Shown here piece after piece: positions 29,590-47,420 of a DNA stretch of 64,000 bases (position 1 is its first letter; each line of letters opens with the position of its first letter). Both the position numbers and the translations under genes were made by a program. This DNA is from Candidatus Marinacidobacterales bacterium (GTDB taxonomy: Bacteria > Acidobacteriota > Vicinamibacteria > Marinacidobacterales > DATDRI01), in contig CBDCNP010000002.1 in the NCBI GenBank assembly GCA_965219415.1, positions 2,848,001 through 2,912,000 of the forward strand. Direction: 5' to 3'. Below the pieces are notes generated by a model, which was not told the origin of the DNA, did no database searches, and worked only from the letters and a program-made list of their open reading frames with translations.

Positions 29590-30955
29590 GAGTCAAGCCC
29601 ATTCTTAGTTGAAACTCTCCACGGCTCACGTTTAAGCGACCTTCTTCTTCGATACGGTTGATGTCTTCGCCTCGATCTTCAGTTCCCGCTTGAGAGCTTC
29701 GCGAAGCTTGGGAAGATGGCGGTAGCCCACCACCTTCCTCAAGCGCGGTTCGATGTCTACGAGCGCCGTTGCCAACCAGCGCTGGCGTTGGCTCGAGTTC
29801 TTCCAGTGGTCGACCTTCGCGCAGCGTTCCTCGACGAGAGCATTGACGGACTCAAGGCAGTTCGTCGTCTTGAACGAACGGCCCAGCACCGCGTGCACGC
29901 CGAGTCGATGCAACGTCAGCGTCTCCTCGAGGCCTTCCTCCAGGCTGCCAGCTGCGGATTGGTTCCGCTCTTCTAACTCACCGTGGAGTTGCTCGAGCGC
30001 AGTGAGGGCCTCTTCGTACTCCGGCCTGTTGTAGGCCCACTGGAGCCGCTTGCGCCATGACGCCTGCTCGCCCTTGGACAGGTAGCTCACTACGTTTTCA
30101 CGTTTGTGCCACTGGCAGCGTTGTATCAGGGCCCGCTTACGGAATGCCTTCTTGACTGCCGCTTGGAGACCCTTGCCGCCGTCGATGATCACCAGCAGAC
30201 CCTGGGAGATATCGAGTCCCCGCTCGAGCAGTGAACGCAGGAACGGCGTCAACACCTGCGCGTTCTCCGTGTCCGTCTCCACGAAGCCCAAGAAGCGTTT
30301 TTCCCCGCAAAGCGTGATGGCCAGAGCCACGACCATCGTTGCCTCGGCGAATGTCTTCCCATCCAGAAACAGCGCCACCACATCCTCGCCGGTCAGATCC
30401 CGTTCCTGCATCTCCCGCAGCTTCGCAGCGCTCGCTTGCACGAACCCTCGGGACACCGTTGAGCTCGACAGCCCGATGGCGCCCGGAATCGCTTCCGCTG
30501 CCGCCTCGTAGTTGCGACAAGAGATTCCGTAGAGAACTCGTTTCAGCAGAAGATCATTCACCTCACCGCCGTGGCTCACCGCCTCGTAGCAGCGAAGCGG
30601 AATCTCTCCTCCCTCGATGCTCCGAACCCGTGGCACACGGATCGGTACCCGCTGGCCGCCAAGCCCTACCGTGCCCGGGTTGCTTCCGGGACGGCGACCG
30701 CGCTCCAGCTCGTCCTTGCGAGAGTATCGCTCTCCCGCCAACGCCTTCACTTCGTCGTCGAGCAACTCGTGAACGTGCATTAGACCAAGGGGGACCAACC
30801 AACGGATCATCTCTACCTTGGCGTCCAGCACGAGTTCCCCGTAATCCTCGTGCCTCACCATCTCGACCTCACCCAAACGACGCGACTTCTTGCGTTTCTT
30901 GACCGAACGTAGCAGACTTCCCATCTCGGCTCCTTTCTTCGCGGCTTGATTTTTT
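29590..30955 (-). mobile_element. IS256-family element, upstream end cut by ISL3
   Basis: Transposase plus probable terminal sequence GAGTCAAGCCCATTCTTAGTTGAAA at 29590; no matching end in the ~30 nt before ISL3. Confidence 0.75.
29632..30924 (-). CDS. IS256/Mutator-family DDE transposase
   Basis: RVPRVR, GISCR, FLDGK, IIDGGKGL, QRCQWHK, TTNCLESVN. Confidence 0.92.
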   Translation of the reverse strand: MGSLLRSVKKRKKSRRLGEVEMVRHEDYGELVLDAKVEMIRWLVPLGLMHVHELLDDEVKALAGERYSRKDELERGRRPGSNPGTVGLGGQRVPIRVPRVRSIEGGEIPLRCYEAVSHGGEVNDLLLKRVLYGISCRNYEAAAEAIPGAIGLSSSTVSRGFVQASAAKLREMQERDLTGEDVVALFLDGKTFAEATMVVALAITLCGEKRFLGFVETDTENAQVLTPFLRSLLERGLDISQGLLVIIDGGKGLQAAVKKAFRKRALIQRCQWHKRENVVSYLSKGEQASWRKRLQWAYNRPEYEEALTALEQLHGELEERNQSAAGSLEEGLEETLTLHRLGVHAVLGRSFKTTNCLESVNALVEERCAKVDHWKNSSQRQRWLATALVDIEPRLRKVVGYRHLPKLREALKRELKIEAKTSTVSKKKVA

Positions 30956-32339
30956 GGGTTTACGCGGATTCGTGTGGGTAAGTTCTGACGGAAAAACAGT
31001 GTAACTCATTGTGTGGAAAAGGTATCGAGTACTTCATCAGGTGCTGAAAAGTGGTCCATTTTTAGGATAGGCTAACCGAGTGAAAAATTCCCAGTCGATC
31101 CGCTCGCTGTTTGCGCTGCCAGGTTTCGTGGTTGGTGCCGGATTGAAGGGTCTATTCGGTGACCGATACGCCCGTGTCATCCAGCTCAAGAGGCGAAAAA
31201 AACAGCTGTGTGCTCTTACTGTGGGCAACGGTGCCGGGGGCGCTATGACAAGCAAGTGTGCCGGGTCCGCGACCTGTCGTTGGCAGGCTGGCGGATCTAT
31301 CTGGAATACGAGCGTTGGCGCGTCAACTGTTCTGGGTGCGGCGGTGTGCATGTAGAACACCTAGACTGGCTGGCGAACAACTCGCGCTACACCCAGCGTT
31401 TTGCGACGCATGTGGGCAAGCTGTGCCGGGATATGCCGAACAAGGCGGTGGCCGAGATGGAACGTCTGCACCACGGTACGGTGAAGGCTCTGGATACGCT
31501 CTACATGCAAGAGCAGGTCGACCGGGCGGGGCTACCGGCGCCTCGGGCCATCGGTGTCGATGAGATCTCCATCCGCAAGGGACATAACTATCGCGTCATT
31601 GTCAGCGGCCTGGAGCGGGCGCGTCCCATCTGGGTGGGCGGTGAGGGTCGCAAAGAAACCGACATCGATTTGTTCTTCAAGGCGCTGGGCGGAAAGAAAA
31701 GCGCCCGTATCAAGCTGGCCGCCATGGATATGTGGAAGCCCTTCCGGAACTCGGTGATTCACAACGCGCCTAATGCGCGGATCATCTTCGACAAGTTTCA
31801 TATCATGCGTCATCTGTCAAAGGCCCTCGATGAGGTCCGGCGCGGTGAGTACAAACGCCTCAGCGGCAAGGACCGGTCGTATATCAAGGGGCAGCGTTAC
31901 ACTTTGCTTTCCCGGCGGGAGAACCTGAGCCTAGACGGTCGCCGCGCACTCAAAAAGTTGCTCCAGGCCAACCGGCGCCTGAACACCGCCTATATTTTGA
32001 AGGAGGTCTTCGGGCAACTCTGGGATTACCGCACCGAACGCGGCGCTCGCGCCTTTTTCACTCGTTGGAAAGACAGCCTCAAATGGCAACGCCTGCATCC
32101 GTACCAGAAGTTCGCCGGTATGATTGAGTCCCATTGGGATGGTATCGCCTCCTACTGTCATCCGGAGAACAAAGTCAGTCTCGGCCTAGTTGAAGGGGTC
32201 AACAACAAAATCCGTGTTCTGCAACGACGCGCCTACGGCTATCGCGACGAGGAATATCTCAAGCTGAAGATCGTGGCGGCTTTCCTTCCGCCATTACCCA
32301 GAAATGCAGTTTTCAACCCACACGAATCCGCGTAGACCC
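30956..32339 (+). mobile_element. ISL3-family insertion sequence, complete ends
   Basis: 24-bp terminal inverted repeats GGGTTTACGCGGATTCGTGTGGGT / ACCCACACGAATCCGCGTAGACCC (1 mismatch); no target duplication. Confidence 0.92.
31080..32335 (+). CDS. ISL3 transposase (-1 frameshift at A7, 31196-31202)
   Basis: CSYCG/CSGCG zinc finger, IGVDEISIRKGH, AMDMWKPF, FDKFHI, VEGVNNKIRVLQRRAYG. Confidence 0.92.
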
Positions 32340-32505: not shown

Positions 32506-33393
32506 TCAAGTCGATGTAATCGCGAACTCGATCAAGATACCACCGACGAACTTGGTGGTAATCGTCCTGTCGTCCTGCGAATACGTGCGGGTCATGATTT
32601 CCATGGAGCCTTGCTGCTCGGTGGCAGCCGTTCCCGCCGGCCCAAGGAGCCTCTCTACCTGCTGTAACGTCAACCCTTTCTTCAACTTGGTGACTTCGCG
32701 CTCGGGAGGGTCGTTGGGCCGAGTCGTTTCGGTCGCGTCAGCGGCGGCCGGGATAGAAAGGTTTTCCTGAGCGGCGGGGAAGTCCACGAACTTGCTCAAG
32801 GCCTCCACGATTCCATTAGGTGTGACTGCCTCCGGCGGAACGGCGTTGTGGTAACGGATGTTGAACCGGCTTCCCGACTGCGCTCGACGCGCCCGCTCGT
32901 CGGCGGCTTGGGCTACTTTGGCCTGGGCGGACTGGGCGCTGGCCCAGGCGTTGTCCTGTCTCCGCTCCCGTCGAAGATCGTCTTGTTCGTCCTTGAGTTC
33001 CTTTCGCTTCTGAGGATCCGTTTCCCATTTCAGCTCTTGCTCTATGTTCTTTTCTCGTCTCGACTTCCCTTGGTTGTAGGAGCCAGATGAGTAGGTAGAG
33101 GCGCTCGCTAGGTTGTCGGCGAAGGTTCCGAAGCCACCACCTCCGAGCTGAAACTCGATATGCTTTTTCTTGATGTGCACCTTCGTCACCATGATGGATT
33201 GTCCCGCGTGGACTCCCGTGCCGTTGGTCTTGAGATTCTGCGCCAACTTGCGGAAATCGACCGGCATCGGCTCGTTAGGGTAGACGTCCACCCCGATTTG
33301 GCTGGCTGGCATGTCGAGCTTCACGACCACCGTCATGCCTTCGAAGTACTGGCGGAGGACGGATTCGCTCTGCGCTGAAGCGAAGCTCGACAC
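32506..33393 (-). CDS. Hypothetical secreted protein, signal peptide truncated; C-terminal SmpA/BamE-like segment
   Basis: Begins with signal-peptide tail SSFASA|Q; IEFQLGGGGFG; LKKGLTLQQVERLLGP. Confidence 0.6.
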   Translation of the reverse strand: MSSFASAQSESVLRQYFEGMTVVVKLDMPASQIGVDVYPNEPMPVDFRKLAQNLKTNGTGVHAGQSIMVTKVHIKKKHIEFQLGGGGFGTFADNLASASTYSSGSYNQGKSRREKNIEQELKWETDPQKRKELKDEQDDLRRERRQDNAWASAQSAQAKVAQAADERARRAQSGSRFNIRYHNAVPPEAVTPNGIVEALSKFVDFPAAQENLSIPAAADATETTRPNDPPEREVTKLKKGLTLQQVERLLGPAGTAATEQQGSMEIMTRTYSQDDRTITTKFVGGILIEFAITST

Positions 33394-33778
33394 CGACGAC
33401 TTGAACGCGATCCCCCAGCAAGGCCGTGCCGAGGTTCACGATCGATCCGCCACGCCGGCCGACCGCGGCTAGATAGTTATCTGTCCCGGTTCCTCCGGAG
33501 CTCTCCGTTAGCAGAACGATGGCTTCCTCGTGCCCGTCACCGTCCAGATCTCCTGTCAGCCGGAAGTCGCGGACGAGCCGCACCCTGGGACGAGACGCCA
33601 CCCCGGGAACGAAGGGCTCGCCTTCGAAGGAGCCGTTCTCGAGTTGTACTGCATGGTCGTAGATTCCTTGATAGGAACAGTTCGCAAGCTCATCCGGTGA
33701 AGGCGCTTCTGATTGTGCCAGAGCGAGACTGGCCGGGAACACTAGGATCGACAAGATTTGGATTCTAACGGCGATCAC
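33394..33778 (-). pseudogene. 5' part of a secreted protein gene fused out of frame to the next gene
   Basis: Signal peptide ALA|Q, GDLDGDG...ESSGGTG...LGDRVQV, then the frame runs into the downstream gene. Confidence 0.55.
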
Positions 33779-33956
33779 ATTCGTCTCCCGGAGTGATCAC
33801 GGAACCAGAACTAGAGAGAACTTCTTGAATGGCGGTTAATTTTCTGAGATGGGAATTCCTGGGAATCCTCTAGGGCAGAATATCAGAAGTGGAAAAAATG
33901 TTGGAGTCTCTGCTAGTCAAGGATGCAGAAGCGAGCGAGGCTTCCCAACGCCTATA

Positions 33957-34713
33957 TCAACGGCGCCACGTCAGCTCGAACTCGTAGGTATCCGCCCCGT
34001 TCTTGTCGTCCTCTATTCTCACTACCGCCGTGTAGTTATTCGAGGAGCTTGGGGCCTGAACGAGCTCCACCTCGCCCCGGCCGTCAATCTTGTGGAGCGA
34101 TACCGGCACCTCGCGTTCGGGAAGGGGAGACTGGAAGCGGGCGCGACGCTCCTGGGTCCCTTGACCACCCATGTCTTTCACGAGATGCTCGTCGCCGCGG
34201 ATCTCGATCTCGGCACCGATGTCGACGCGTCCTTCCCAACGGAAGACACCTTCTCGACGATTGTCGAAGTCGTCCCACTCATCGTCGTCATCCCAATCGT
34301 TGTTGTCCCAGTCATCCCAGTCATCGCGTCGCCAGACGAGCTCGAACTCATAGTAGTCGTCTCCCATCTGCTTCCCGTCGTCGAGTCGGACGACGGCTGT
34401 ATAGTCGTTCCACGAGCTCGGTTCCTCGATGAGCCGCACGTCTCCGCGCCCTTTGATCTTGTTGAGCTTGAGATGGATCTCGCGAGCTCGGGAGTGGCGC
34501 GCTGAACCGATGGTCCTGGCGCTGGATGGGCTTGGCTTCAATATGATTGATACGGATAGATTCGCCGCGGATCATAATCTCGTCCACGCCATCCACTTGT
34601 CCCCGCCACTGAAAACGCTCTTCCTTTGCGGTAGCTTCCGCAGGGACAGGTCCAGCGTCCATCCAGCAGCCGCTCACCAGCAAGAATTTCCCTAGAAAGA
34701 GTTTCGCATCCAT
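33957..34713 (-). CDS. Exported two-repeat beta-rich protein with D/W-rich linker (frameshift near 34485)
   Basis: Two ~95-aa copies FxWxGxVD...IRG...FxxPLP...GRGxVxLxxxPSSxNxYTAVVRxxD...YEFELxWRR; AAGGAG upstream. Confidence 0.75.
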
Positions 34714-34813
34714 CCTGATTTCTCCTTTACCACTATAGAACCACATCAAGGAGCCTGTCGCCAGGTCCCCGGCGCCTGGCTAGCCTGATTCTAGCCCCGC
34801 GCTATCTTGGCGC

Positions 34814-34866
34814 CTGAAGTGAGCTTCAGTACGGCCCTTGACGGGAGCGGGCTCACGGTTTAAAAG
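34814..34866 (+). promoter_or_regulatory. Palindromic site plus putative sigma-70 promoter of the amidohydrolase array
   Basis: CTGAAG-TGAG-CTTCAG (34814-34829), then TTGACG-17 nt-TAAAAG. Confidence 0.45.
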
Positions 34867-34891
34867 TGCTTCCGGACAGGAGGTATTCGGT

Positions 34892-36196
34892 ATGCAAAGG
34901 CTTACAAGCGTTCTGATCTTGGTGCTGTCGACGGCGGTGGGTGCGGCGGCACAATCAGGTGACTCCGACGTCAAGGCCATCGTGGGGGCCAACGTCGTGG
35001 ATATCGAAGGCGGGGAGCCGATCCGTGATGCGGTGGTGGTGATCGTGGACGAGCGGATTTCCGCCATTGGCCCGGCTTCGAGCACCCGGGTTCCGACCGG
35101 GGCGGAGGTGATCCATGCCGATGGTATGTGGCTCGTTCCCGGCCTCATGAACATGCACGTCCACTTCGGCCTGAAGCTGCCCGGGAAGATGGCGGCCGAA
35201 TTGGCCAATGAAAAGGACACCGAGCTCGCCCTCCGTGTGGCCGACAATGCTCGACAGTCGCTTTTGTCGGGCGTCACGACCATACGAAGCACCGGTGACA
35301 CGGGCGCCGCGTCGATTGCCCTCGATAAGGCGATCAAGAAGGGCCACGCCGTCGGGCCTCGCATCTGGAGCCCCAGCGACGCCGTGCCCATCTCCGGCGG
35401 CCATGGGGCGAGACATGGCAAAACCTACGATGGTCCTTACGAGCTCATGAAGGCGGTTAGAGAACGCGTGGCCGACGGGGCGAGCTGGATCAAGATAGCG
35501 ATTTCCGGAGGCATCGCGAGCCAAGGGGGCGCCATCGCGGAAGCCACCATGACGCCCGAGGAAATGGAAGCGGTGATCGATTCGGCCCACCGTTTCGGGC
35601 GCAAGGTAACTGCGCACTCCGGCTCCCCGCAGGCAACGTCAACGGCCGTCGACCTGGGCGTCGACTGCATCGAACATGGCTACTTTCTCGATCGTCCCAC
35701 GCTCGAGAAGATGAAGGCGAACGGTGTCTGGTTGGTGCCCACCATCGTGGTCAGTCAGCCGGCTACCGCGCCTTTCTTCGAGAAGATCGGTTCTCCCGAG
35801 TGGTATCTGAAGCGTCGGGACTCGGTCGGTAAGGATCATTGGAAGGCGCTCCAGACGGCGATTGAAGTCGGCGTCAACATCGGTCTGGGTACGGATCAAT
35901 TTCCTCATGAGCCGAACGATGGCACGACGGCCACCGTCCGTGAGGCTCAGTACTACGTCGAAGCGGGCATGACGCCGCTCCAAGCATTGCGGTCCGGGAC
36001 CATCGAAACGGCGAAGCTTCTCGGTGCCGAAAAAGACATCGGCTCCATCGAGGTCGGTAAGTACGCGGACATCCTGGCGGTGCCGAGGGATCCGACCGCG
36101 GACATCAAGGCTCTCCGCCAGATTCAGTTCGTGATGAAGGGCGGCGAGGTGTACCGCAACGACATGGCGGCCGGAGCTCGGGCTTCGGGCCGGTAG
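34892..36196 (+). CDS. Secreted amidohydrolase-superfamily peptidase, copy 1
   Basis: Signal peptide; PGLMNMHVH, GVTTIR, GGHG, WIKI, AHS, EHG, GTD, GKYAD; GGAGG RBS. Confidence 0.93.
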   Translation: MQRLTSVLILVLSTAVGAAAQSGDSDVKAIVGANVVDIEGGEPIRDAVVVIVDERISAIGPASSTRVPTGAEVIHADGMWLVPGLMNMHVHFGLKLPGKMAAELANEKDTELALRVADNARQSLLSGVTTIRSTGDTGAASIALDKAIKKGHAVGPRIWSPSDAVPISGGHGARHGKTYDGPYELMKAVRERVADGASWIKIAISGGIASQGGAIAEATMTPEEMEAVIDSAHRFGRKVTAHSGSPQATSTAVDLGVDCIEHGYFLDRPTLEKMKANGVWLVPTIVVSQPATAPFFEKIGSPEWYLKRRDSVGKDHWKALQTAIEVGVNIGLGTDQFPHEPNDGTTATVREAQYYVEAGMTPLQALRSGTIETAKLLGAEKDIGSIEVGKYADILAVPRDPTADIKALRQIQFVMKGGEVYRNDMAAGARASGR

Positions 36197-36216
36197 GTCG
36201 GTAAGGAAGTAATGAT

Positions 36217-37524
36217 ATGCGACAAATTCAGAACGCTCTGATTGGGCTGTCCGCGGCGCTTGCTTTATTGATGCCGCAGGCAGCGGAGTCTCAAGTAAAG
36301 GCCATTGTTGGCGCCAATGTCGTCGATCTCGATGGCGGGCCGGCGATCCGGGATGCCGTCGTCGTGATCGAAGGCGAGCGCATCTCCGCCCTCGGCCCAT
36401 CGGGAAGCGTACGCATTCCCTCGGGAGCGGAAGTCATTCCCGCCGATGGCATGTGGCTCACGCCTGGCCTCATGAACATGCACGTCCACTTCGCGCTGAT
36501 GCTGCCCGGCAAGATGCAAGCCGAGCTCGCCAACGAAAAGGAGACTGAGAAAGCACTCCGCGTCGCCCACAACGCGCGGCTATCTCTCCTTTCGGGTGTG
36601 ACCACGGTACGCCTCCCGGGAGATAAGCGCGAGACGGCGATCGCGCTCGATAAAGCCATCAAGAAGGGCCAGGCCGTGGGTCCGCGTATCTTCAGCGCCG
36701 GCGAATCGGTCCCTATCACCGCGGGACACGGTAGCCGCGGTGTAAGACGGACCTACGATGGGCCCAGCGAGCTCATCAAGGCGGTCCGTGAGCGGGTTAA
36801 TGCAGGGGCGAGCTGGATCAAGATTCTCATTTCCGGTGGCATCTCGACGCAAGGTGGCAACATTGCCGAGGCCACCATGACTCCAGGGGAGATGGAAGCC
36901 GTGATCGACGCCGCGCACCGGTTCGGGCGAAAAGTAACTGCACACTCCGGTTCTCCGCAGGCAACGTCAACAGCCGTCGACTTGGGCATTGACTGCATCG
37001 AACATGGGTATTTTCTCGATCGCCCCACGCTCGAGAAGATGAAGGCGAACGGTGTGTGGCTGGTGCCCACCATCGTCGTCAGCCAGCCAGCCACCGAGCC
37101 CTTCTTCAAGAAGATCGGTTCTCCCGAGTGGTATCTGAAGCGCCGGGACTCGGTGGGCAAGGAGCATTGGAAGGCGCTGCAGACGGCTATCGAGCTCGGG
37201 GTCAACATCGGTCTCGGTACGGATCAAATGCCTTATGAGCCCAACGCCGGGACAACCGCCACAATACGGGAGGTTCAGTACTACGCGGCGGCAGGGATGA
37301 CGCCGCTTCAGGCCTTGCGGGCGGGCACGATCGAGACGGCGAGAATGCTCGGTGCCGAAAAGGACATCGGCTCCATCGAGGTGGGCAAGTACGCGGACAT
37401 CCTGGCCGTCCCGAGTGATCCAACCGCGGACATCAAGGCGCTTCGTCAGATTCAGTTCGTGATGAAGGGCGGTGAGGTGTATCGCAACGACATGGTTACC
37501 GGAAGTCGACCTTCCGGCCAATAA
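36217..37524 (+). CDS. Secreted amidohydrolase, copy 2
   Basis: Same motifs (HVH, K, H, H, D); MRQIQN signal peptide. Confidence 0.93.
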   Translation: MRQIQNALIGLSAALALLMPQAAESQVKAIVGANVVDLDGGPAIRDAVVVIEGERISALGPSGSVRIPSGAEVIPADGMWLTPGLMNMHVHFALMLPGKMQAELANEKETEKALRVAHNARLSLLSGVTTVRLPGDKRETAIALDKAIKKGQAVGPRIFSAGESVPITAGHGSRGVRRTYDGPSELIKAVRERVNAGASWIKILISGGISTQGGNIAEATMTPGEMEAVIDAAHRFGRKVTAHSGSPQATSTAVDLGIDCIEHGYFLDRPTLEKMKANGVWLVPTIVVSQPATEPFFKKIGSPEWYLKRRDSVGKEHWKALQTAIELGVNIGLGTDQMPYEPNAGTTATIREVQYYAAAGMTPLQALRAGTIETARMLGAEKDIGSIEVGKYADILAVPSDPTADIKALRQIQFVMKGGEVYRNDMVTGSRPSGQ

Positions 37525-37550
37525 GGAAGAGTAAGGTTAGGTATCAAAAG

Positions 37551-38855
37551 ATGCGACAAATTCAGAACGCTCTGATGGGGCTGTCTGCGGCGGCACTCGT
37601 GCTCTTGGCGCCGCAGACAGCGCAGTCTCAAGTGAAAGCGATCGTCGGCGCGAGCGTGGTGGATCTCGACGGCGGCCCCGCGATTCGAGATGCCGTCGTC
37701 GTCATCGATGGCGAGCGAATCTCCGCGATCGGTCCGTCGGGGAGTACGCGGGTTCCTTCGGGAGCGGAAGTGATCCGTGCCGACGGCATGTGGCTGCTTC
37801 CGGGCCTGATGAACATGCATCAGCACTTCGGGTTCATCCTTCCAGGCAAGATGCAGGCCGAGCTGGCGAACGAGAAAGATACCGAGCTGGCACTTCGCGT
37901 CGCCGACAATGCGCGCGGATCCCTTCTTGCCGGCGTGACTACGGTGCGGCCGCCCGGCGACAGTCGTTCGGCGGCGATTGCTCTCAAGAAGGCTATCGAC
38001 AAGGGGCAGGCCATCGGCCCGCGCATCTACAGTGCCGGTGAGGCAGTTCCCATTACCGCAGGCCACGGAGCCGGCGAAGTCACCTACGACGGTCCTTACG
38101 AGCTCATCAAGGCGGTTCGGGAGCGCGTCGCCGCCGGCGCTGTATGGATCAAGATCATGATCTCCGGAGGCATCGCGACCCAGAGCGGAGCGATCGGGAA
38201 AGCCACCATGACGCCGGAAGAGATGGGAGCGGTGATCGATGCCGCACACCGGTTCGGCAGGAAGGTTACTGCTCACTCCGGCTCCTCGCAAGCGACGACG
38301 ACGGCGGTCGAGTTGGGGATCGATTGCATCGAGCATGGTTACATGCTCGATCGCGAGACCCTGATGAAAATGAAGGAGCATGGTACGTGGCTGGTGCCGA
38401 CGATGGTAGTAACCCAGCCGGCCACACAACCGTTCTTCGAGAAGATCGGTTCCCCGGAGTGGTACCTCAAGCGGCGCGACTCGGTGGGCAAGGAGCACTG
38501 GAAGATGCTTCAAATGGCCATTGAGGTCGGAGTCAACATCGCGCTCGGCACCGACCAGCTTCCCCAAGAGCCCAACGATGGAACGATCGCAACGGTCCGG
38601 GAGGCCGAATACTACGTGGCGGCGGGGATGACGCCGCTTCAAGCATTGCGATCCGGCACCATCGAAACGGCCAAGCTTCTCGATGCCGACAGTGACATCG
38701 GCTCCATCGAAGTCGGCAAGTACGCCGACATCTTGGCGGTGCCGAGCGATCCGACGGCGAACATCAAAGCCCTCCGTCAGATTCAGTTCGTGATGAAGGG
38801 CGGCGAGGTGTACCGCAACGACATGGCTACCGGCGGTCGGGCCTCGGGGCGATAA
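37551..38855 (+). CDS. Secreted amidohydrolase, copy 3
   Basis: Same motifs (HQH, K, H, H, D). Confidence 0.93.
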   Translation: MRQIQNALMGLSAAALVLLAPQTAQSQVKAIVGASVVDLDGGPAIRDAVVVIDGERISAIGPSGSTRVPSGAEVIRADGMWLLPGLMNMHQHFGFILPGKMQAELANEKDTELALRVADNARGSLLAGVTTVRPPGDSRSAAIALKKAIDKGQAIGPRIYSAGEAVPITAGHGAGEVTYDGPYELIKAVRERVAAGAVWIKIMISGGIATQSGAIGKATMTPEEMGAVIDAAHRFGRKVTAHSGSSQATTTAVELGIDCIEHGYMLDRETLMKMKEHGTWLVPTMVVTQPATQPFFEKIGSPEWYLKRRDSVGKEHWKMLQMAIEVGVNIALGTDQLPQEPNDGTIATVREAEYYVAAGMTPLQALRSGTIETAKLLDADSDIGSIEVGKYADILAVPSDPTANIKALRQIQFVMKGGEVYRNDMATGGRASGR

Positions 38856-38868
38856 AGGGGGCACAACG

Positions 38869-40179
38869 ATGCGACGAATTCAGAACGTTTTGTCAATTTT
38901 CACAGCGGCGGCACTCGGGTTCTTGGCCCCGCAAACGGCGCAGTCTCAGGTGAAGGCGATCGTGGGCGCGACCGTGGTCGATCTCGACGGCGGAGCGCCG
39001 ATTCGAGACGCCGTCGTCGTCATCGATGGCGAGCGAATCTCCGCCATCGGTCCGTCGGGGAGTACGCGGGTTCCCTCTGGGGCGGAAGTGATTCGTGCCG
39101 ACGGCATGTGGCTCGTTCCCGGTCTGATGAACATGCACCATCACTTTGGTTACATGATGCCCGGCCCGATGACCGCTGAGCTGAGGAATGAGAAGAATAC
39201 CGAGCTGGTACTCCGCGTCGCCGACAACGCTCGACAAGCTCTACTCTCGGGAGTGACGACGGTAAGGCCTCCCGGCGATCGGCGCGAGGCTGCCATCGCA
39301 CTCAAGAAAGCCATCGACAAGGGCCAGGCGATCGGTCCCCGTATTTTCAGCGCCGGCGAAGCGATCCCTATCACCGCGGGTCACGGCAGCAACCACGTCA
39401 GGAGGACCTACGACGGGCCCGACGAGTTAACCGAGGCGGTCCGCAGCCGCGTCGCCGCCGGGGCGGTCTGGATCAAGATCATGGTTTCCGGAGGCATTGC
39501 CACTACTGGCGGCGATATCTCGGAAGCGCTCATGACGCCCGAGGAGATCGAAGCGGTCATCGACTCTGCCCATCGTTTCGGACGAAAGGTGACCGCCCAC
39601 TCCGGCTCGCCGAAGGCGACGATGACCGCGGTCGACTTGGGGATCGATTGCATCGAGCACGGCTACATGCTCAATCGTGAAGCCCTCGTCAAGATGAAAG
39701 AGAACGATGTCTGGCTCGTCCCGACAATGGTGGTTACACAGCCCGAGACGGACCCGCTCCACGAGACGTTCGATTTGCCGGCTTGGTACGTGGCGCGACG
39801 CGAGGCGGTCGGGAAGCTTCACCTCAAGGCGATCCAGATGGCCATCGAGGAGGGCGTCAACATTGCTCTGGGGACAGACTTCCTACCCGCAGAGCCCGCC
39901 AACGGAACCACCGTCACAGTGGTCGAGGCCGAGCTTTACGTCAAGGCGGGGATGACGTCGCTTCAGGCGTTGAGAGCAGCGACCATCGAGCCGGCGAGGC
40001 TTCTCGAAGCCGAAGAGGACATCGGTTCACTCGAGATCGGCAAGTACGCGGATATTCTTGCGGTGCCGAATGATCCCACGAAGGACATTTCGACTCTTCG
40101 CCAAATTCAGTTCGTGATGAAGGGCGGCGAGGTGTACCGCAACGACATGGCTACCGGAAGTCGGGCTTCCGACCAATAG
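38869..40179 (+). CDS. Secreted amidohydrolase, copy 4
   Basis: Same motifs (HHH, K, H, H, D); GTDFLP variant. Confidence 0.93.
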   Translation: MRRIQNVLSIFTAAALGFLAPQTAQSQVKAIVGATVVDLDGGAPIRDAVVVIDGERISAIGPSGSTRVPSGAEVIRADGMWLVPGLMNMHHHFGYMMPGPMTAELRNEKNTELVLRVADNARQALLSGVTTVRPPGDRREAAIALKKAIDKGQAIGPRIFSAGEAIPITAGHGSNHVRRTYDGPDELTEAVRSRVAAGAVWIKIMVSGGIATTGGDISEALMTPEEIEAVIDSAHRFGRKVTAHSGSPKATMTAVDLGIDCIEHGYMLNREALVKMKENDVWLVPTMVVTQPETDPLHETFDLPAWYVARREAVGKLHLKAIQMAIEEGVNIALGTDFLPAEPANGTTVTVVEAELYVKAGMTSLQALRAATIEPARLLEAEEDIGSLEIGKYADILAVPNDPTKDISTLRQIQFVMKGGEVYRNDMATGSRASDQ

Positions 40180-40203
40180 AGTAAAGTAAGGCTGGTGATT
40201 CGA

Positions 40204-41511
40204 ATGCGACAAGTTCAGAAAACTCTAATCGGGTTATTTGTGGCGGCAGTTGTTTTCTTGGCGCCGCATACTGCGCAGTCTCAAGTGAAGGCGATCGTCG
40301 GCGCGAGCATAGTCGATCTCGACCGCGGCTCCGCGGTCGGGGATGGCGTGGTGGTGATCGAAGGAGAGCGAATCTCTGCGATCGGCCCGTCGGGCAGCAC
40401 GCGTATTCCGGCGGGCGCGGAAGTCATTCGCGCCAACGGCATGTGGCTCGTTCCCGGCCTCATGAACATGCACACGCACCTCGGTGTCATCATGGCGGCG
40501 CAGAAGGCGGAACTGGCCAATGAAAAGACGACGGAGTTGGCCCTGCGGGTCGCCGCCAATGGGCGCAAAGTTCTCTTGTCGGGCGTGACGACGATTCGAT
40601 CACCCGGTGACAGGAAGGGTGCGGCTCTGGCTCTCAAGAAGGCGATCGCCAAGGGTCAAGCGGAGGGGCCGCGCATCTTCAGCGCGGGCGCGGGGCTGCC
40701 GATCACGGCTGGGCACGGCAGCGACAGTGGCGCGGAGACGTATGATGGTCCTTATGAGCTCATCAAGGCGGTCCGCAGTCGGGTTGCCGATGGGGCGGTT
40801 TGGATCAAGATCTTCACGTCCGGCGGCATCTCGACTCCGGGGGGTGACATTTCCGAGGCCCTGATGACGCCCGAGGAGATCGAAGCGGTGATCGACGCCG
40901 CCCATCGTTTCGGTCGAAAGGTGACCGCGCATTCGGGCTCTTCGAAAGCGACGAGTCTGGCGGTCGACGCGGGCATCGACTGCATCGAACACGGCTATAT
41001 GGTCGACCGTGAGACCCTATTAAAGATGAAGGCGAATGGCGTTTGGCTTGTTCCAACCATCACCGTGACTCAGCCGGCGAGCACACCCTTCTTCGAACAG
41101 CAAGGACCTCCTGCGTGGTACATGGCTCGCCGCGAAACAGTGGGAATAACGCATTGGCAGGCTCTCCGGACGGCGATCGCGGAAGGGCTCGACATCGCTC
41201 TGGGCACGGACTTCCTACCCTCGGAGCCGATCGATGGTACAACGGCCACCATCCGGGAGATCGAATACTACGTGGCGGCGGGGATGACACCGACTCAAGC
41301 CTTGCGAAGCGCGACAATCGAAACCGCTAAGCTTCTCGACGCCGATAAGGACATCGGTTCACTCGAAGTCGGCAAGTACGCGGACATCTTGGCGATGCCG
41401 AGCGATCCCACCAAAGACATCTCCGCCCTTCGCGAGATTCAGTTCGTGATGAAGGGGGGGACCGTCTACCGTAACGACATCGGCGGCGGGAGTCGAGCTT
41501 CCGGACGATAG
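40204..41511 (+). CDS. Secreted amidohydrolase, copy 5
   Basis: Same motifs (HTH, K, H, H, D); GTDFLP variant. Confidence 0.93.
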   Translation: MRQVQKTLIGLFVAAVVFLAPHTAQSQVKAIVGASIVDLDRGSAVGDGVVVIEGERISAIGPSGSTRIPAGAEVIRANGMWLVPGLMNMHTHLGVIMAAQKAELANEKTTELALRVAANGRKVLLSGVTTIRSPGDRKGAALALKKAIAKGQAEGPRIFSAGAGLPITAGHGSDSGAETYDGPYELIKAVRSRVADGAVWIKIFTSGGISTPGGDISEALMTPEEIEAVIDAAHRFGRKVTAHSGSSKATSLAVDAGIDCIEHGYMVDRETLLKMKANGVWLVPTITVTQPASTPFFEQQGPPAWYMARRETVGITHWQALRTAIAEGLDIALGTDFLPSEPIDGTTATIREIEYYVAAGMTPTQALRSATIETAKLLDADKDIGSLEVGKYADILAMPSDPTKDISALREIQFVMKGGTVYRNDIGGGSRASGR

Positions 41512-41519
41512 GCATCGCA

Positions 41520-42800
41520 GTGCGACAAATTCAGAATGTTCTGCCCGTCTTGTTTGTGGCAGCGCTCGGGTTCTTGGCGCCGCAGACGGCGCACCCTCAA
41601 GCAAAGGCCATCGTGGGGGGGAGCGTGGTGAGCCTCGACGGTGCAGCTCCCATCCAAGACGCCGTCGTGGTGATCGAAGGCGAACGAATCGCAGCGATGG
41701 GACCCGCGGGGAGCACGCGAGTTCCCACGGGGGCGGAAGTCATTCGTGCCGACGGCATGTGGCTCATTCCCGGCCTCGTCAATATGCACGTACACCTCGG
41801 CCTGGCATTGCCTGGCAAGGTGGCTACCGAGCTGGCCAACGAGACGGATACCGAGCTCGCTCTTCGTGTTGCGGATAACGCTCGTCAATCCCTGCTCTCC
41901 GGCGTGACCACCATACGGACGCCCGGGGATCGCCGAGCCGCGGCGATTGCGCTCGACAAGGCGGTCCAGAAAGGCCAAGCGGTGGGCCCGCGCATTTTCA
42001 GTGCCAGCGAGACTGTTGTGATCACCGGCCGTGGCTCCGGCCGTAGCGAAACCTATGACGGGCCCTACGAGCTCATCAAAGCCGTCCGTAGTCGAGTCCG
42101 CGACGGAGCCAGTTGGATCAAGATCGCGATCTCCGGCGGCATCGCTAGCCAAGGCGGAGCCATCGCGGAATCCATCATGACGCCTTCGGAGATCGAAGCG
42201 GTGATCGATGCCGCCCATCGTTTCGGCAGAAAAGTAACGGCACACTCCGGCTCGCCTCAAGCGACGAGCGTCGCCGTGGATGCGGGGGTCGATTGCATCG
42301 AGCACGGTTACCACCTCAATCGCGAGGTCTTGGTCAAGATGAAAGACAACGGGACCTGGCTGGTTCCCACCATCGTCGTGAGCCAACCGGCGACTGCACC
42401 TTTCTTCGAAAGGATTGGCTCTCCCGATTGGTATCTCGAGCGCTTGGCTTCAGTAGGAACAGATCATTGGAAGTCGCTTCAAATGGCCATCGAAGTGGGT
42501 GTCAACATCGCGCTCGGAACGGATCAATTCCCCTATGAGCCCAACGACGGAACGACCGCCACGGTGCGAGAAGCCGAATACTACGTGGCGGCGGGGATGA
42601 CGCCGACTCAAGCTCTACGCAGCGCGACTACCGAAACTGCCAAGCTTCTCGATGCCGATAAGGACATCGGCTCACTCGAAGTCGGCAAGTACGCGGATAT
42701 TCTTGCCGTGCCGAGCGATCCCACTAAAGACATCTCGGCCCTCCGCGAGATTCGGCTCGTCATGAAGGGTGGAACCGTCTACCGCAACGACATGCGTTAG
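41520..42800 (+). CDS. Secreted amidohydrolase, copy 6
   Basis: GTG start; HVH, K, H, H, D present; GHG loop reads GRG; short C-terminus. Confidence 0.92.
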   Translation: MRQIQNVLPVLFVAALGFLAPQTAHPQAKAIVGGSVVSLDGAAPIQDAVVVIEGERIAAMGPAGSTRVPTGAEVIRADGMWLIPGLVNMHVHLGLALPGKVATELANETDTELALRVADNARQSLLSGVTTIRTPGDRRAAAIALDKAVQKGQAVGPRIFSASETVVITGRGSGRSETYDGPYELIKAVRSRVRDGASWIKIAISGGIASQGGAIAESIMTPSEIEAVIDAAHRFGRKVTAHSGSPQATSVAVDAGVDCIEHGYHLNREVLVKMKDNGTWLVPTIVVSQPATAPFFERIGSPDWYLERLASVGTDHWKSLQMAIEVGVNIALGTDQFPYEPNDGTTATVREAEYYVAAGMTPTQALRSATTETAKLLDADKDIGSLEVGKYADILAVPSDPTKDISALREIRLVMKGGTVYRNDMR

Positions 42801-43987
42801 GGTTTGCGTGGCTTGGCGGTTCTGGAAGACGACCCACCCCCCGAAGAGTATCCTTTGGAGGTCGCGCTACCGCCTGACGAGGACGACGAGCCTTTAGACC
42901 TTGTCGAGCTTGCCGAAGAAGAGCCCTCTCGGGACCCCGAGCTCCCAAACGCCCCACCCCCACTGGTTCGGCCGACCCGTGTGTAGCCGCGACCCTTGAC
43001 GAGTCGCCCGCCGGCGATGCCTTGGTCGGGGATCCCGACCGGTCTCCGCACGTAGAAGGTGTCATAGGGCGTATACCAGTAGTAGTAACCGAAGGGGGCG
43101 AAGAAGAAACTGCTCCAGTAGTTGTAGCTTTGACCGAAACCCGCGCCTCCGCCCCCGTAGCTGCGGCCTTGGGTCTCCCGGGAGACCTCGAAGCGGTGGG
43201 GATAGGCGAGTGCCACCATTAAGTCGATCGTCTCGGGGGAGATGCCGGAATCCGCGAGTTGAACGAGCGTCTTGCCGTTCAAGTCGAAGGTGGAGCCACT
43301 CTCCACCAAAGCCGCCTCGACCGCCGCGGAGTCGATCTTGTTGCTCGCTTCGGCGAGATCGTCGATGGTGAGAGGCCTCGATATCGCCGCTCGCGCCGCC
43401 GTAACCGCGGTCGCCGTCTCGGGTGGCACTTCCTCGAATCCCAGCTTGCTCACCGCTTCCGATGGAGCGGGTCGGTAGCGCCGTATGACGACCTCGCGCC
43501 CGCTTCCGCCATCGAGCGCCTGTATGTCGACCCACGTGTTCCAGCGTCTAAAGAAACTCACCCCAGTGAAACTCTGTTGTTTCCCCGCCTTGCAGCTCAT
43601 TTCGGAACGCAGGAACAAGAGCGCCTGGTTCTTGGACCACTCGGTAACTTGATGACCGCTGCAGTCCGAGACCGCGAACGGGCGGCGGAGTCCGTCGGCG
43701 TACAAGGTCTCCTCCAAGAGTAGCTCGCCATCTGCGTAGGTGCTTAGTTTTGCTTCTCCCTCCGCGCCCGGGGTGACGCACACCAGCTGCTCGTCGGTGA
43801 CGCGATATTCTTTTTCGCTGGCCCCTTCGAGGACAGCCGGAAGCTTCACGACGTCGGCTACCAACTGCCAACAGCCGAGCCATGGCAACCAGGGGGAATC
43901 GGCAGAGTCTTTCGCCGGCTGCGCGAACGCCGTCGATGAAGTTGCGCAAAGCAACGCCGTAACCAGTGCAAGCTGTCGGAAGCTCAT
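42797..43987 (-). CDS. Hypothetical secreted protein with Tyr/Trp-rich segment and Ser/Gly-rich tail
   Basis: Signal peptide AFA|Q; WLPWLGCWQL; LVQLADSGISPETIDLMVALAYP; stop overlaps the amidohydrolase 6 stop. Confidence 0.75.
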   Translation of the reverse strand: MSFRQLALVTALLCATSSTAFAQPAKDSADSPWLPWLGCWQLVADVVKLPAVLEGASEKEYRVTDEQLVCVTPGAEGEAKLSTYADGELLLEETLYADGLRRPFAVSDCSGHQVTEWSKNQALLFLRSEMSCKAGKQQSFTGVSFFRRWNTWVDIQALDGGSGREVVIRRYRPAPSEAVSKLGFEEVPPETATAVTAARAAISRPLTIDDLAEASNKIDSAAVEAALVESGSTFDLNGKTLVQLADSGISPETIDLMVALAYPHRFEVSRETQGRSYGGGGAGFGQSYNYWSSFFFAPFGYYYWYTPYDTFYVRRPVGIPDQGIAGGRLVKGRGYTRVGRTSGGGAFGSSGSREGSSSASSTRSKGSSSSSGGSATSKGYSSGGGSSSRTAKPRKP

Positions 43988-44001
43988 GGTCTTATCCTCT
44001 C

Positions 44002-44754
44002 TCAATTGAATATCCAGTATATCCCGGCCGTAACACCGAATCCTGTTAGGTCGATGGGATCGAAACCAATGAAGTCGTCCTTCAGCTTCGCATCGACCCA
44101 GGCGTAGCGGCCCTCGACGGTCAGGAACATCTTGCGGCTGAGCTTTACGTCGACCCCGCCCAAAACGTGCACCGTCGGGGCCCATCCACTCGACGTGAGC
44201 ATGGCCTCGAAGATGGACAGATCGTCGAAATCGACGAACTCACCAAACTGTTCGAACTTGTACCATTGAAGTCCGACTCCGGCGCCCACGTAGGGAGCGG
44301 CGCTCCTCGCCACCCAAGCATAGCGGCTTACCTCGTGTCCGCGCGGCACGAGATAAAACTTCGCACTAGCGGTCAAAGGAAACTGCGTGAGCGTGGTCTT
44401 CTGGACGATGGGGAGATCGTCGGTGCCCACGAAATCGCGGAACTCCGACGTCGTCGAAGAGCGGCTGTACTCGAATCCGAAGACGACGTCGAGGCGCTCT
44501 TTCAGCACTAAGGCGAAATCGACGCCGAGCGTCGGGGCATCGAAATCGCCGTCGCCCACAGTGAGCAGCTCGCGAGTGAAGTCGAAGAGGTCGCTCTCGG
44601 CTCTGGCTAGGCTCCAACCGGCGCGGAAGCCCGCCGAGAATCGGGGTGCGCCAAAGAGAAAATCGGGTTCCTGGGTCGCTGGCGGAGTGGCACTGACCTC
44701 CACGCCAACCAGGGACACGCCGGCAAGTACAAGGGCGACGAGGTTTTTTTGCAT
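44002..44754 (-). CDS. Outer membrane beta-barrel protein (small OmpA/OmpW-type barrel)
   Basis: Signal peptide; alternating strands, PYVGAGVG, EGRYAW, terminal AGIYWIFN. Confidence 0.75.
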   Translation of the reverse strand: MQKNLVALVLAGVSLVGVEVSATPPATQEPDFLFGAPRFSAGFRAGWSLARAESDLFDFTRELLTVGDGDFDAPTLGVDFALVLKERLDVVFGFEYSRSSTTSEFRDFVGTDDLPIVQKTTLTQFPLTASAKFYLVPRGHEVSRYAWVARSAAPYVGAGVGLQWYKFEQFGEFVDFDDLSIFEAMLTSSGWAPTVHVLGGVDVKLSRKMFLTVEGRYAWVDAKLKDDFIGFDPIDLTGFGVTAGIYWIFN

Positions 44755-44912
44755 GTCTTCTCATCACCCGTACGGGGGGAACGGGTTCGTTAGGCCCATC
44801 TTCCCACTTATGGTCGGCCCAGACAAATCGGGACCGGACGGATTCTTTCCCGAAATCGGACACCGGGCACGGTCTTCTTCGTGTGAAGGCGTGACTCTTG
44901 GGCGCATACCGG

Positions 44913-44928
44913 TGGCATACGTTTTGCT
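44913..44928 (+). promoter_or_regulatory. Putative sigma-54 (-24/-12) promoter
   Basis: TGGCATACGTTTTGCT = GG-N10-GC consensus, 16 nt before ATG 44945. Confidence 0.5.
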
Positions 44929-44944
44929 CCTATTATTGTCCGAC

Positions 44945-46448
44945 ATGATTCAAGACCTCTCGGTCGCGTTTCGAGTTCTCCGGAAACGACCCGGCGCCAG
45001 TGCCGTCGTCATCTTGATCCTGGCGTTGGGCATCGCCGTCAACGCCACGTTTTTTACTTTTTTCAACGGGATGATTCTTCATCCCTTGCCGTTCGAGGAT
45101 GCGGAGAGGCTCGTCTATTTGAGTGAGTCGCAACCGAAGCTCGGCAAGAGCCGGCAAGAGATCTCGGGGCCCAATCTGCAAGACTGGCAGGAAGAAAGCA
45201 GTGTTTTCGCGGCCATCGCACCGTACGCGAATCGAAGCTTCAACCTTCATACCGAAGAGGACCCCGAGCGGGTCCGAGGCACCAGGATCTCGGCTTCCTT
45301 GTTCCCGCTGCTCGGTGTCGAACCCATCTTAGGCCGCAACTTCACCGAGGAAGACGACCGGCCCGGAGCGGCCGAGGTAGCGCTCATCAGTCACACGATG
45401 TGGCAAAGACGTTTCGACGCCGATCCCGCCGTTTTGGGGCGCACGGTTCATTTGAACGAGCGGGTACACGAAGTCGTGGGGGTGATGCCGCCTGGATTCC
45501 GCTTCGAGAACTTTTCCGAGGTCTGGACACCGTTGAGGCTCGCTCCGCAAGACACCGCTCGCGACAATCGTTGGCTTGCCGCGATCGCGCGACTGAAACC
45601 CGGCGTGACAGCCGAAGAGGCACAGCTCGAGATGGAACTCATCGGAGAGCGACTCGAGGGCCGTTACCCGGAGACGAACACGGGCTGGAACGTGCGAGTG
45701 CGCCCCCTCCGCGATGCTTGGCTTCCCCCGGTCACGCAGTTGAGCTCCTACATCCAGCAGGTGGCGGTGTTCTTCGTCCTTCTCATCGTGTGCGCCAACG
45801 TCGCCAATCTCATGTTGGCGCAAGCGACGGCACGTCGTCAGGAGACCGCACTTCGCGCCGCACTCGGCGCGGGCCGCACACGTCTGATGCCGCAATTCCT
45901 CACTGAGAGCACCCTACTCGCCATCACTGCGGGCGTCGTGGGAACGATCCTGGCTCTTTGGGGAGTCGTTTGGGTCAAGGAGCTCGTACTCGTTCCCATT
46001 CCGTATTGGCTTCATTTCGAGCTCGACGCTGCCACGCTTGCCTACTCGGTCCTCGTCACCCTGAGCGTCGGCTTGGCGTTCGGACTGGTTCCGGCGCTTC
46101 GCGGAACCGGCGGCGATCTCCACCATGCCCTCAAGTCGGGAGGAGGCGGACGGGCCGATGACGGCGCAAGCGGTAACCGCCTACGGAGTCTACTCGTCGT
46201 CTCACAGTTTGCGATGTCGCTCGTTCTTTTAGTTGGCGCGCTGATGATGGTCAAGAGCATCGTTCGCATACAGAACGTGGACGTGGGGTACGAAACCGAG
46301 AGGGTTCTCACGTTGCGGTTGTCCTTGACGGGCGAGTCGTACCGTGAGTCGGGTCGGCGAGGTCGATTCTTGAATGACGCGCTCGAGAGGATTTCGAGCA
46401 TCAGCACGGTGGATGCGGTGGGCGGAGTGAACTATCTACCGTCGAGTT
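44945..46448 (+). pseudogene. ADOP-type (MacB/FtsX duplicated) ABC permease, 3'-truncated by IS5
   Basis: MIQDLSVAFRVLRKRPG, LALGIAVNATFF, VGVMPPGF, LIVCANVANLML, RAALGAGR, LRSLLVVSQ; stops at ~500 aa within the second periplasmic domain. Confidence 0.85.
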
Positions 46449-47420
46449 GCCTTGGTGCACAACTCCGATAGAGGCCGAGAGCTCGCTTGGCCCCGACTCC
46501 CATCATCCGATCATCTCGGTATCAGGCATCCCGAGCGCCGTCATGGTGTTGAGAATCTTGCACCCGATCCTTGCCTCACCTCTCTGTGCCGCCAACCCTC
46601 TCGCTCGCATCGCTGAGCCCACGATAGCCTTGTAGCGATGGAACGTTGTCTCGACTTTGCTCCGTTTGCTGTAGCCCGATTCTGTGTGCCACTTTCGTTT
46701 GCCGAGCCGAGCTTGTGCTGCAATGTTGCGATTGCGCTGTCGGCTGCTCGCCGGCCCCGATGCGAGCAGGGCGCCCTTGCGCGGCGGTATCAGCACCCTC
46801 GGCGAGCGATGAGCGCTGTGATTCTCGATTGCCTCATAGACGCCGCCGGCGTCGTATGCGGTGTCAGCTCTGGCCGATGAGATGGGACTGTCGATCTGTC
46901 CGACAAGCGATGCAACCCGCGATGAATCGCGGGCTCTTTTGCTCGTCAGCTCGCCGGCGACGACTTCGCCACTCTGCTCGTCGACACACAGATGGAGCTT
47001 GCGATAGTCCCTGCTCTTTTGTGCTCTGCGCAGCTGGCCGGCGTGGACAGCGAGACCGCTGCTGTCGAACAAGATGTGCAACGGCGTCTTCTGCTTGACT
47101 GGGTAGAAGGGGACCTTACCCAGCTTCGGCTTGCGCCTCGAGATCGTGGTGTGATCGGGCACATCATTGTCTAGCTTCATCAGAGCGAACAACGACCGCA
47201 GCAATCCCTCGCTCTGCCTAGATGACAGATGAAACACCATGCCCAGGGTGACAGCCGTCTCGATGGCGTGGTTCGAGTATTTGCGTTGACGGCCCGGTTT
47301 CCTCCTCCTTGGCCGGGGCGCGTCCCAGTTCACAAGCTTGCCGGCGGTGAGCGAGATCCAGACGGTCAGGCTCCCGCGGTTGCGTAGACCCGCCTCATAT
47401 TCACGCCAATTCCTCACCTT
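46449..47420 (-). mobile_element. IS5-family (IS903-group) element, 5' end missing
   Basis: IS903-like end GCCTTGGTGCACAAC at 46449; no partner end upstream of the ORF. Confidence 0.8.
46503..47417 (-). CDS. IS5/IS903-group transposase (N-terminus truncated)
   Basis: NWREYEAGLRNRGSLTVW, VPDHTTISRR, DSSGL, RKLHL, ADTAYD, GYSKRSKVETTFHRYK. Confidence 0.9.
   Translation of the reverse strand: MRNWREYEAGLRNRGSLTVWISLTAGKLVNWDAPRPRRRKPGRQRKYSNHAIETAVTLGMVFHLSSRQSEGLLRSLFALMKLDNDVPDHTTISRRKPKLGKVPFYPVKQKTPLHILFDSSGLAVHAGQLRRAQKSRDYRKLHLCVDEQSGEVVAGELTSKRARDSSRVASLVGQIDSPISSARADTAYDAGGVYEAIENHSAHRSPRVLIPPRKGALLASGPASSRQRNRNIAAQARLGKRKWHTESGYSKRSKVETTFHRYKAIVGSAMRARGLAAQRGEARIGCKILNTMTALGMPDTEMIG

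Follow-up and report, generated by a model that had tools for sequence, protein, structure and literature searches.

Near-superimposable members of one amidohydrolase group release different C-terminal residues, i.e. Arg/Lys, hydrophobic residues or Pro, according to PMC11342369. Cc2672 of Caulobacter crescentus (PDB 3mtw) is an L-Xaa-L-Arg/Lys carboxypeptidase, while Sgx9355e (2qs8) was deposited as ‘Xaa-Pro dipeptidase with bound methionine’ and is described in PMC11342369 as a dipeptidase for hydrophobic C-terminal residues. The ochratoxinases, namely OTase of Aspergillus niger (4c5y), ADH3 of Stenotrophomonas (8ihq, 8ihs and 8j85), LlADH and relatives, are octameric and release C-terminal Phe from an N-acyl amide. 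Exported, metal-dependent cleavage of N-acyl amino acid conjugates is also carried out by the amidohydrolase-superfamily bile salt hydrolases of Bilophila wadsworthia, with 2-3 co-located paralogs per strain (preprint PMC13081902). Here we analysed an array of six tandem genes at positions 34892-42800 of a 64,000-nucleotide (nt) stretch of DNA (the window) from a Candidatus (Ca.) Marinacidobacterales bacterium. The array is an old, genus-specific tandem expansion of a widespread, elsewhere single-copy amidohydrolase gene, and its products are probably subfunctionalised periplasmic hydrolases of C-terminal amide bonds that differ in substrate preference.

Anatomy and closest relatives of the six-gene array

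Six open reading frames (ORFs) of 426-438 amino acids (aa) each, all on the + strand and free of internal stops, were found with intergenic gaps of 20, 26, 13, 15 and 8 nt in order, in agreement with the six intact ~430-aa genes 8-26 nt apart that an earlier sequence-only reading had described. The other copies share 67-79% identity with copy 1, and the mean column identity of the six-protein alignment is 83%. The copies, each assigned to one orthogroup (OG), and their parts are listed below, L1 being the loop after the HxH motif.

34892..36196, + strand: copy 1 (OG1), 434 aa from ATG, with TTG 34838 as an alternative start
36217..37524, + strand: copy 2 (OG2), 435 aa, L1 motif HVH-FALMLPGKM
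36490..36516, + strand: L1 stretch of copy 2, residues 92-100 (nine codons past HxH), the main divergence hotspot, with an equivalent in each copy
37551..38855, + strand: copy 3 (OG3), 434 aa, L1 motif HQH-FGFILPGKM
38869..40179, + strand: copy 4 (OG4), 436 aa, L1 motif HHH-FGYMMPGPM, and GTD-FLPA
40195..41511, + strand: copy 5 (OG5), 438 aa from GTG 40195 or 435 aa from ATG 40204
41520..42800, + strand: copy 6 (OG6), 426 aa, GTG start, the first to branch among the six
34750..34891, + strand: upstream intergenic region, carrying the ribosome-binding site of copy 1

The L1 motif of copy 1 reads HVH-FGLKLPGKM; that of copy 5, with one residue deleted, reads HTH-LGVIMAAQ, and this copy also carries WIKIFTS, while copy 6 has ITGRGSGRS in place of the GGH-loop His and a shorter C-terminal tail. 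All motif strings quoted in the sequence-only reading were found as written. Purine-rich, AGG/GGAG-like ribosome-binding sites precede most of the six genes, with GGAGG lying 8 nt before ATG 34892 in copy 1, and the six co-oriented genes are probably co-transcribed as one array. Terminator-like sites in 33000-44500 numbered four versus 9.1 expected from shuffles, with none in the spacers; promoter-like sites did not exceed chance level (two versus 2.9 expected), and Rfam yielded no riboswitch or other family upstream of the array or near it.

Pfam Amidohydro_1 (PF01979) was matched by all six copies with E values of 1e-40 to 1e-44 (9e-45 for copy 1). The metal ligands H89, H91, K201, H242, H262 and D335 (copy 1 numbering) were invariant in the six and in 18/18 array genes of three species, bearing out the full HxH/K/H/H/D set claimed earlier; they sit at predicted strand ends in the binuclear subtype I pattern, i.e. 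HxH after strand 1, Lys after strand 4, His after strands 5 and 6 and Asp after strand 8, and in the alignment they coincide with the equivalent motifs in Cc2672 and 2qs8. The ligands of ochratoxinase are H111, H113, K246, H287, H307 and D378 (PMC11342369). The solved relatives closest in sequence were 2qs8 (E 2e-55) and 3mtw (Cc2672, 1e-52), along with 9kov, LlADH, ADH3 and the A. niger ochratoxinase, and the similarity to characterised COG1228-type members ran from E 2e-55 to 5e-34 across ~390 residues, with template modelling (TM) scores of 0.78-0.85. The best NCBIfam model for 6/6 copies, nearly full length, was NF051886 (Xaa-Pro dipeptidase equivalog), of which the six are not members, scoring 263.8-290.1 bits against a cut-off of 500.

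An AlphaFold2 prediction from the six-sequence alignment was unusable, with a predicted local distance difference test (pLDDT) score of 43.6, and was replaced by one from a 146-row alignment consisting of the six copies, 25 hand-picked of 120 close homologs and the 115 of 125 distant representatives that had single-domain length. The resulting model of copy 2 (pLDDT 95.0, predicted TM score 0.92) comprised a signal helix, a small beta-sandwich and an eight-stranded barrel, i.e. the (beta/alpha)8 two-domain architecture. Foldseek placed it closest to 3mtw (TM 0.85/0.92) and 2qs8 (0.82/0.87), with 9kov, 3n2c, 3be7, ADH3 and ochratoxinase as further neighbours, and the top matches were all amidohydrolases of binuclear subtype I. 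The six copies are binuclear amidohydrolases of the Cc2672/Sgx9355e/ochratoxinase group, and the earlier assignment to COG1228-type carboxypeptidases, prolidases and ochratoxinases held in the Pfam, solved-structure, NCBIfam and Foldseek matches alike. At 42 positions conserved in at least 90% of the family, the 18 array genes deviated solely at G170/H171 (OG6, 3/3 species) and at G84 (one gene).

Compared with the array, Sgx9355e, the best sequence match at ~32% identity, shares the metal ligands, the GGH loop and the VPTI motif past strand 7, but has HAHG past strand 5 where the array has HSGS, a loop past GGH that is ~14 residues longer and an unrelated L1 sequence, and it is a single environmental gene rather than an array. 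Cc2672, the best structural match, agrees with the array in ligand set and two-domain fold, whereas its acidic/polar MDIYNTD past strand 7 stands where the array has hydrophobic PTIVVSQ, a difference that makes a basic C-terminal residue unlikely as substrate of the array. The ochratoxinases have the fold and binuclear site in common with the array at 27-30% identity, but their second carboxylate-contacting His past strand 5 is replaced in the array (Gly245). We know of no link between the array and ochratoxin. The Bilophila enzymes are ~945 aa long, carry extra domains and adjoin a type II secretion system. Remote relatives (33-38% identity) also occur as single chains of two paralogous amidohydrolase halves (P0124-P0128, P0150 and P0156; 824-868 aa), most with signal-peptide-like N-termini; in six such chains compared (P0124-P0126, P0128, P0150 and P0156) the halves were 35-66% identical to each other, and both halves kept HxH and G[TS]D in P0124-P0126 and P0128. 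A description of this array was not found in the literature searched, among the matches listed.

Export of the six enzymes through the Sec pathway is suggested by their N-termini. A presequence of 23-39 residues with a hydrophobic core was recognised in 18/18 array genes of the three species by a heuristic based on the 10-residue mean Kyte-Doolittle value of the core (2.1-3.5 in array genes), consistent with the signal peptides proposed earlier for all copies; K/R precedes the core in 17/18, and the same kind of core was present in 118/120 close homologs. As the Acidobacteriota envelope is diderm, the exported enzymes would be periplasmic.

Age, retention and divergence of the copies

The host genome comprises 8.05 Mb in three contigs, and its two congeners (G001 and G002) are Ca. 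Marinacidobacterales metagenome-assembled genomes (Acidobacteriota, Vicinamibacteria). A comparison of copy number in relatives, as the sequence-only reading had proposed, was performed on 55 genomes of the order with matches at E≤1e-130, and yielded six matches in one array in each of the 3/3 genus genomes and one copy or none elsewhere. Exactly one copy was present in 8/19 genomes of family f2, and any copy in 0/28 genomes of family f3 and 0/5 other genomes of the window's own family f1; a missing match in an incomplete genome does not prove that the gene is absent. The subfamily itself is widespread, with 2449 proteins at E≤1e-40 among 8000 candidates scored and 38,487 cluster representatives at E≤0.001.

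In a tree of the 18 array genes and four single-copy outgroups (one trimmed at an apparent frameshift), six orthogroups were resolved, each with one gene per species and support of 99-100 (100/100 for the OG1 clade), and copy 6 branched first. A 137-row FastTree tree, from which five of the 120 homologs identical to array proteins had been dropped, grouped 18 metagenomic proteins with the six orthogroups in a single clade (support 90). Ortholog pairs had synonymous divergence (dS) of 0.27-0.69 and ratios of nonsynonymous to synonymous divergence (dN/dS) of 0.065-0.148, while the window paralogs had dS of 0.9-1.7 and dN/dS of 0.09-0.20. Thus, the duplications predate the species and are several times older than them, and each copy has been retained under purifying selection, so a recent dosage amplification is excluded. 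The earlier view of the copies as diversified and not redundant fits these six orthogroups kept across three species with dN/dS near 0.1.

That the six copies are no assembly error, a point that the sequence-only reading had left to read data, is evident from the presence of the array in three independent assemblies and in contigs of four public sequencing runs from four studies, which covered 30/30 bins of the stretch. Ten runs contained at least half of the sampled words of the stretch, and all containing runs span 12 studies. In runs X1 and X2, the junctions between copies 1 and 2, 2 and 3, 4 and 5, and 5 and 6 were bridged with 0 differences among the pieces listed, and the junction between copies 3 and 4 was not among them. 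In one contig of run X10, position 37594 is followed by 31 other letters and then by position 38999, a junction that most likely reflects the mosaic 5′ ends of the copies in a related strain and not a deletion.

Across 451 alignment columns, 182 were invariant, 210 varied inside orthogroups and 59 were fixed in each orthogroup but differed between them, with 53 of these 59 in the mature region. When mapped on the predicted structure, as had been suggested, the fixed differences were enriched in the eight beta-alpha loops of the catalytic face (27/102 positions versus 26/296 elsewhere; one-sided Fisher p=1.8e-5), also among variable positions alone (27:40 in loops versus 26:126 elsewhere; p=2.9e-4), indicating for the modelled fold that the differences between copies are concentrated on the catalytic face. 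By loop, nine lay in L1, eight in L7 (after strand 7) and four in L3 (the GGH loop), while the beta-sandwich domain and C-terminal part held four in 124 positions. The strongest hotspot was the nine positions past HxH, 8/9 of which were fixed within and different between orthogroups. There (codons 92-100) dN/dS was 0.03 among orthologs versus 0.41 among paralogs, compared with 0.105 and 0.138, respectively, in the rest of the protein; thus, L1 changed after duplication and was then frozen.

The sequence-only reading had placed the differences right after the catalytic strands in general, and this stood for L1 only. Positions +1 to +8 past the five ligand sites contained 11/40 fixed differences versus 42/358 elsewhere (p=0.009), and the enrichment disappeared once the HxH loop was left out (4/32 versus 42/358; p=0.54). 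The clustering lies in L1, L7 and L3, the GGH loop. The residues past Lys, EHGY and GTD vary inside orthogroups too. Between the two His of HxH, the residue (V, V/T, Q, H, T and V in OG1 to OG6) is orthogroup-specific save in one gene.

Pocket residues and competing explanations

Pocket positions of ochratoxinase were transferred to the array by offset from the ligands and not by residue alignment. On this basis, ochratoxinase Val253 corresponds to the invariant I209, Val332 and Ile333 to V288 and S289 in L7, beside fixed differences at 286, 287 and 289, and His289 to Gly245 in the whole clade. Ochratoxinase His191 is probably the GGH-loop His171 of the array, which is present in copies 1-5 and in 104/115 distant representatives; in copy 6 of 3/3 species it is replaced, and an Arg stands beside it (G170R, H171G/A). 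The strand-5 motif is AHSGS in 18/18 array genes and the outgroups, without a second His two residues past the ligand. At that position, 34 of the 115 distant representatives have His and 22 have Gly, hence the second strand-5 His does not define the whole group. Past strand 7, the stretch is hydrophobic (VPT-I/M-V/T-V-S/T), similar to VPTISAG of 2qs8 and unlike MDIYNTD of Cc2672; together with the acyl-side loop L1 being the most divergent, this points to a hydrophobic C-terminal leaving residue and to differences mainly on the acyl side. ADH3 S88 presumably lies three residues past its HxH. An S88E variant of ADH3 with higher activity is named in the title of 8j85 and in PMC11291262.

Taken as a subfunctionalised set, the array would go back to the ancestor of this Ca. 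Marinacidobacterales genus, in which the widespread single-copy gene was duplicated in tandem; the substrate-facing L1, L7 and L3 would later have changed and then been frozen, leaving each copy with its own substrate preference. By the chemistry of the group, the enzymes would release a C-terminal L-amino acid from dipeptides, peptide ends or N-acyl amino acids. HxH and Asp would hold one metal and two His the other, with a carboxylated Lys as bridge, and a metal-bound hydroxide would attack the scissile amide. A preference for hydrophobic C-terminal residues may be largely common to the copies and that for the acyl or penultimate group may differ, while copy 6 may bind the carboxylate of its substrate in another way. 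With all six, the cell would be able to turn a broader range of amide-linked organic nitrogen into free amino acids.

Several points weigh against this reading. Paralog dN/dS is below 1 and dS is near saturation, so the data speak for divergence followed by constraint and not for demonstrated positive selection. The loops were taken from one predicted model and delimited with the sites already in view, loops as a rule change more readily than other parts, and the columns of an alignment do not vary independently. With Gly in the whole clade at the position of the carboxylate-contacting His289 of ochratoxinase, substrate binding may differ from that of the characterised enzymes. In addition, the neighbours of the single-copy relatives had nothing in common among the four genomes compared, and the context thus gives no clue to the substrate.

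The six proteins could instead be subunits of one machine, i.e. a hetero-octameric periplasmic enzyme or combinatorial mixed oligomers, as the sequence-only reading had imagined. Solved relatives are deposited with eight chains per entry, ochratoxinase is described as a D4 homo-octamer (PMC11342369), the genes stay together in 3/3 species, the few fixed differences in the beta-sandwich and C-terminal part (4 in 124 positions) may leave contact surfaces compatible between copies, and the remote fused chains pair two paralogous halves, four of them with HxH and G[TS]D in both. However, every copy has a complete active site and requires no partner, single-copy relatives are the rule elsewhere, and operon co-location is expected for mixed oligomers and separate enzymes alike, so that we consider a single assembly unlikely, and equally so a hetero-octameric combinatorial hydrolase in which copy 6, having lost the His and gained an Arg, would handle differently held C-termini. 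If mixed hetero-octamers did form, the array would be a natural multi-specificity machine instead of six separate enzymes. Isozymes for different conditions (metal supply, pH, temperature or salinity) rather than substrates would suit the orthogroup-specific HxH middle residue, apart from one gene, and an L1 that begins right at the metal ligands; they are quite improbable, however, given that the genes, with 8-26 nt between them, show no indication of being regulated separately and that fixed differences spread over L1, L7 and L3, which line the pocket and carboxylate site in relatives.

Very unlikely, too, is that the array serves one natural-product or xenobiotic class, such as lipopeptides, siderophores or ochratoxin-like amides, with the copies acting on successive or related intermediates. 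Its relatives do include ochratoxinases, secreted bile salt hydrolases of the Bilophila type (PMC13081902), and CaeD/ColD, which remove leucine in bipyridine antibiotic pathways (PMC5636949), but no biosynthetic, transport or regulatory genes are conserved beside the array or its single-copy relatives. Tandem repeats can also amplify for dosage or be mis-assembled, and dosage amplification, neutral redundancy or an assembly artefact would then account for six copies; this is extremely improbable in view of the paralog dS of 0.9-1.7, the six orthogroups kept in three species and the recovery of the array from three assemblies as well as from run contigs of four studies, and both dosage amplification and artefact were rejected. 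Divergent substrate preferences among separately active enzymes are the explanation that we favour.

The kind of enzyme is known, and tandem expansion followed by divergence is a common evolutionary route. The ‘undescribed system’ announced by the sequence-only reading was thus an overstatement for a genus-specific expansion of a widespread single-copy enzyme, beside which no conserved partner genes were found. With one scaffold, 67-82% identity and most fixed differences in a few loops, the six orthogroups of the three species nevertheless provide a natural panel and a compact system for mapping determinants of substrate preference in a family used in ochratoxin detoxification and N-acyl-amino-acid biocatalysis. 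Copy 6 adds a conserved natural variant without a near-invariant histidine of the family, and the array lends itself to testing how amide-bound organic nitrogen may be harvested by an uncultured lineage of marine Acidobacteriota.

Gene order and genomic neighbourhood

Window positions 2 and 3 (36217-38855) are orthologous to positions 3 and 2, respectively, in both sister genomes (loci L013 and L014), so that copy 2 is the ortholog of their third and copy 3 of their second gene. As the window genome and G002 are sisters by dS, the swap of genes 2 and 3 is derived in the window's lineage. Junction comparison displayed that a spacer and the preceding 3′ tail move together with the downstream gene, and a sliding-window comparison pairs the core of each gene with its orthologs but reveals mosaics of paralogs over the first ~200 nt and the last ~150 nt. 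Recombination is thus active between the copies, and the cores have stayed distinct without being homogenised. In G002, both junctions around position 2 are almost identical, indicating gene conversion.

The array and its downstream genes are collinear in 3/3 genomes, and the upstream side is common to the window and G001 only. The collinear downstream genes comprise one for a secreted protein rich in Gly, Ser and Tyr, an ORF of 250 aa and one for a MacB/FtsX-type permease, and the first of them lies as follows.

42797-44185, - strand: convergent gene encoding a secreted protein with a Gly/Ser/Tyr-rich C-terminal region, adjoining the array in 3/3 genomes

Pfam and NCBIfam gave no family for the immediate neighbours of the array, including this protein. 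Most of the permease gene (44866-46192) lacks a counterpart in G001, where the flanking sequences adjoin each other, and is present in G002. The divergent upstream gene at 33957-34749 (- strand) starts with a lipobox-like LVSGC and contains repeated beta-rich modules; its coding sequence is broken into two frames that overlap (34348-34749 and 33957-34541). Relative to G001, where a 269-aa ORF occupies the corresponding position (L013 14136-14945), the phase of third-position mismatches shifts near 34500, and the split is likely a frameshift or sequencing error.

Mobile elements surround the wider region, with an ISL3-family transposase at 31208-32335 (+ strand) and a DDE_Tnp_1 transposase at 46503-47417 (- strand), neither of which had a match in the 20-kb regions around both sister arrays. 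A Mutator-family transposase at 29632-30924 (- strand), 4 kb upstream of the array, is identical at 428/430 positions to one ~1.1 Mb away (L017 6470-7837, + strand), hence this insertion sequence has been recently active in the genome. The distant transposase gene borders a seventh, partial copy of OG1 type on contig 3 of the host genome (G000), at 3962695-3963399 (L017 5690-6445, + strand), which matches copy 1 with 94% identity over 236 aa. Its first residues are missing, and the Mutator-family gene cuts it right past AHSGS, with IS3-like transposase ORFs upstream. More distant amidohydrolase clusters (≤37% identity) were located on the same contig at ~427-441 kb, 964-969 kb and 3999-4046 kb, and the whole genome yielded 83 matches to the array query at E≤1e-10; clustered amidohydrolases are a genome-wide theme.

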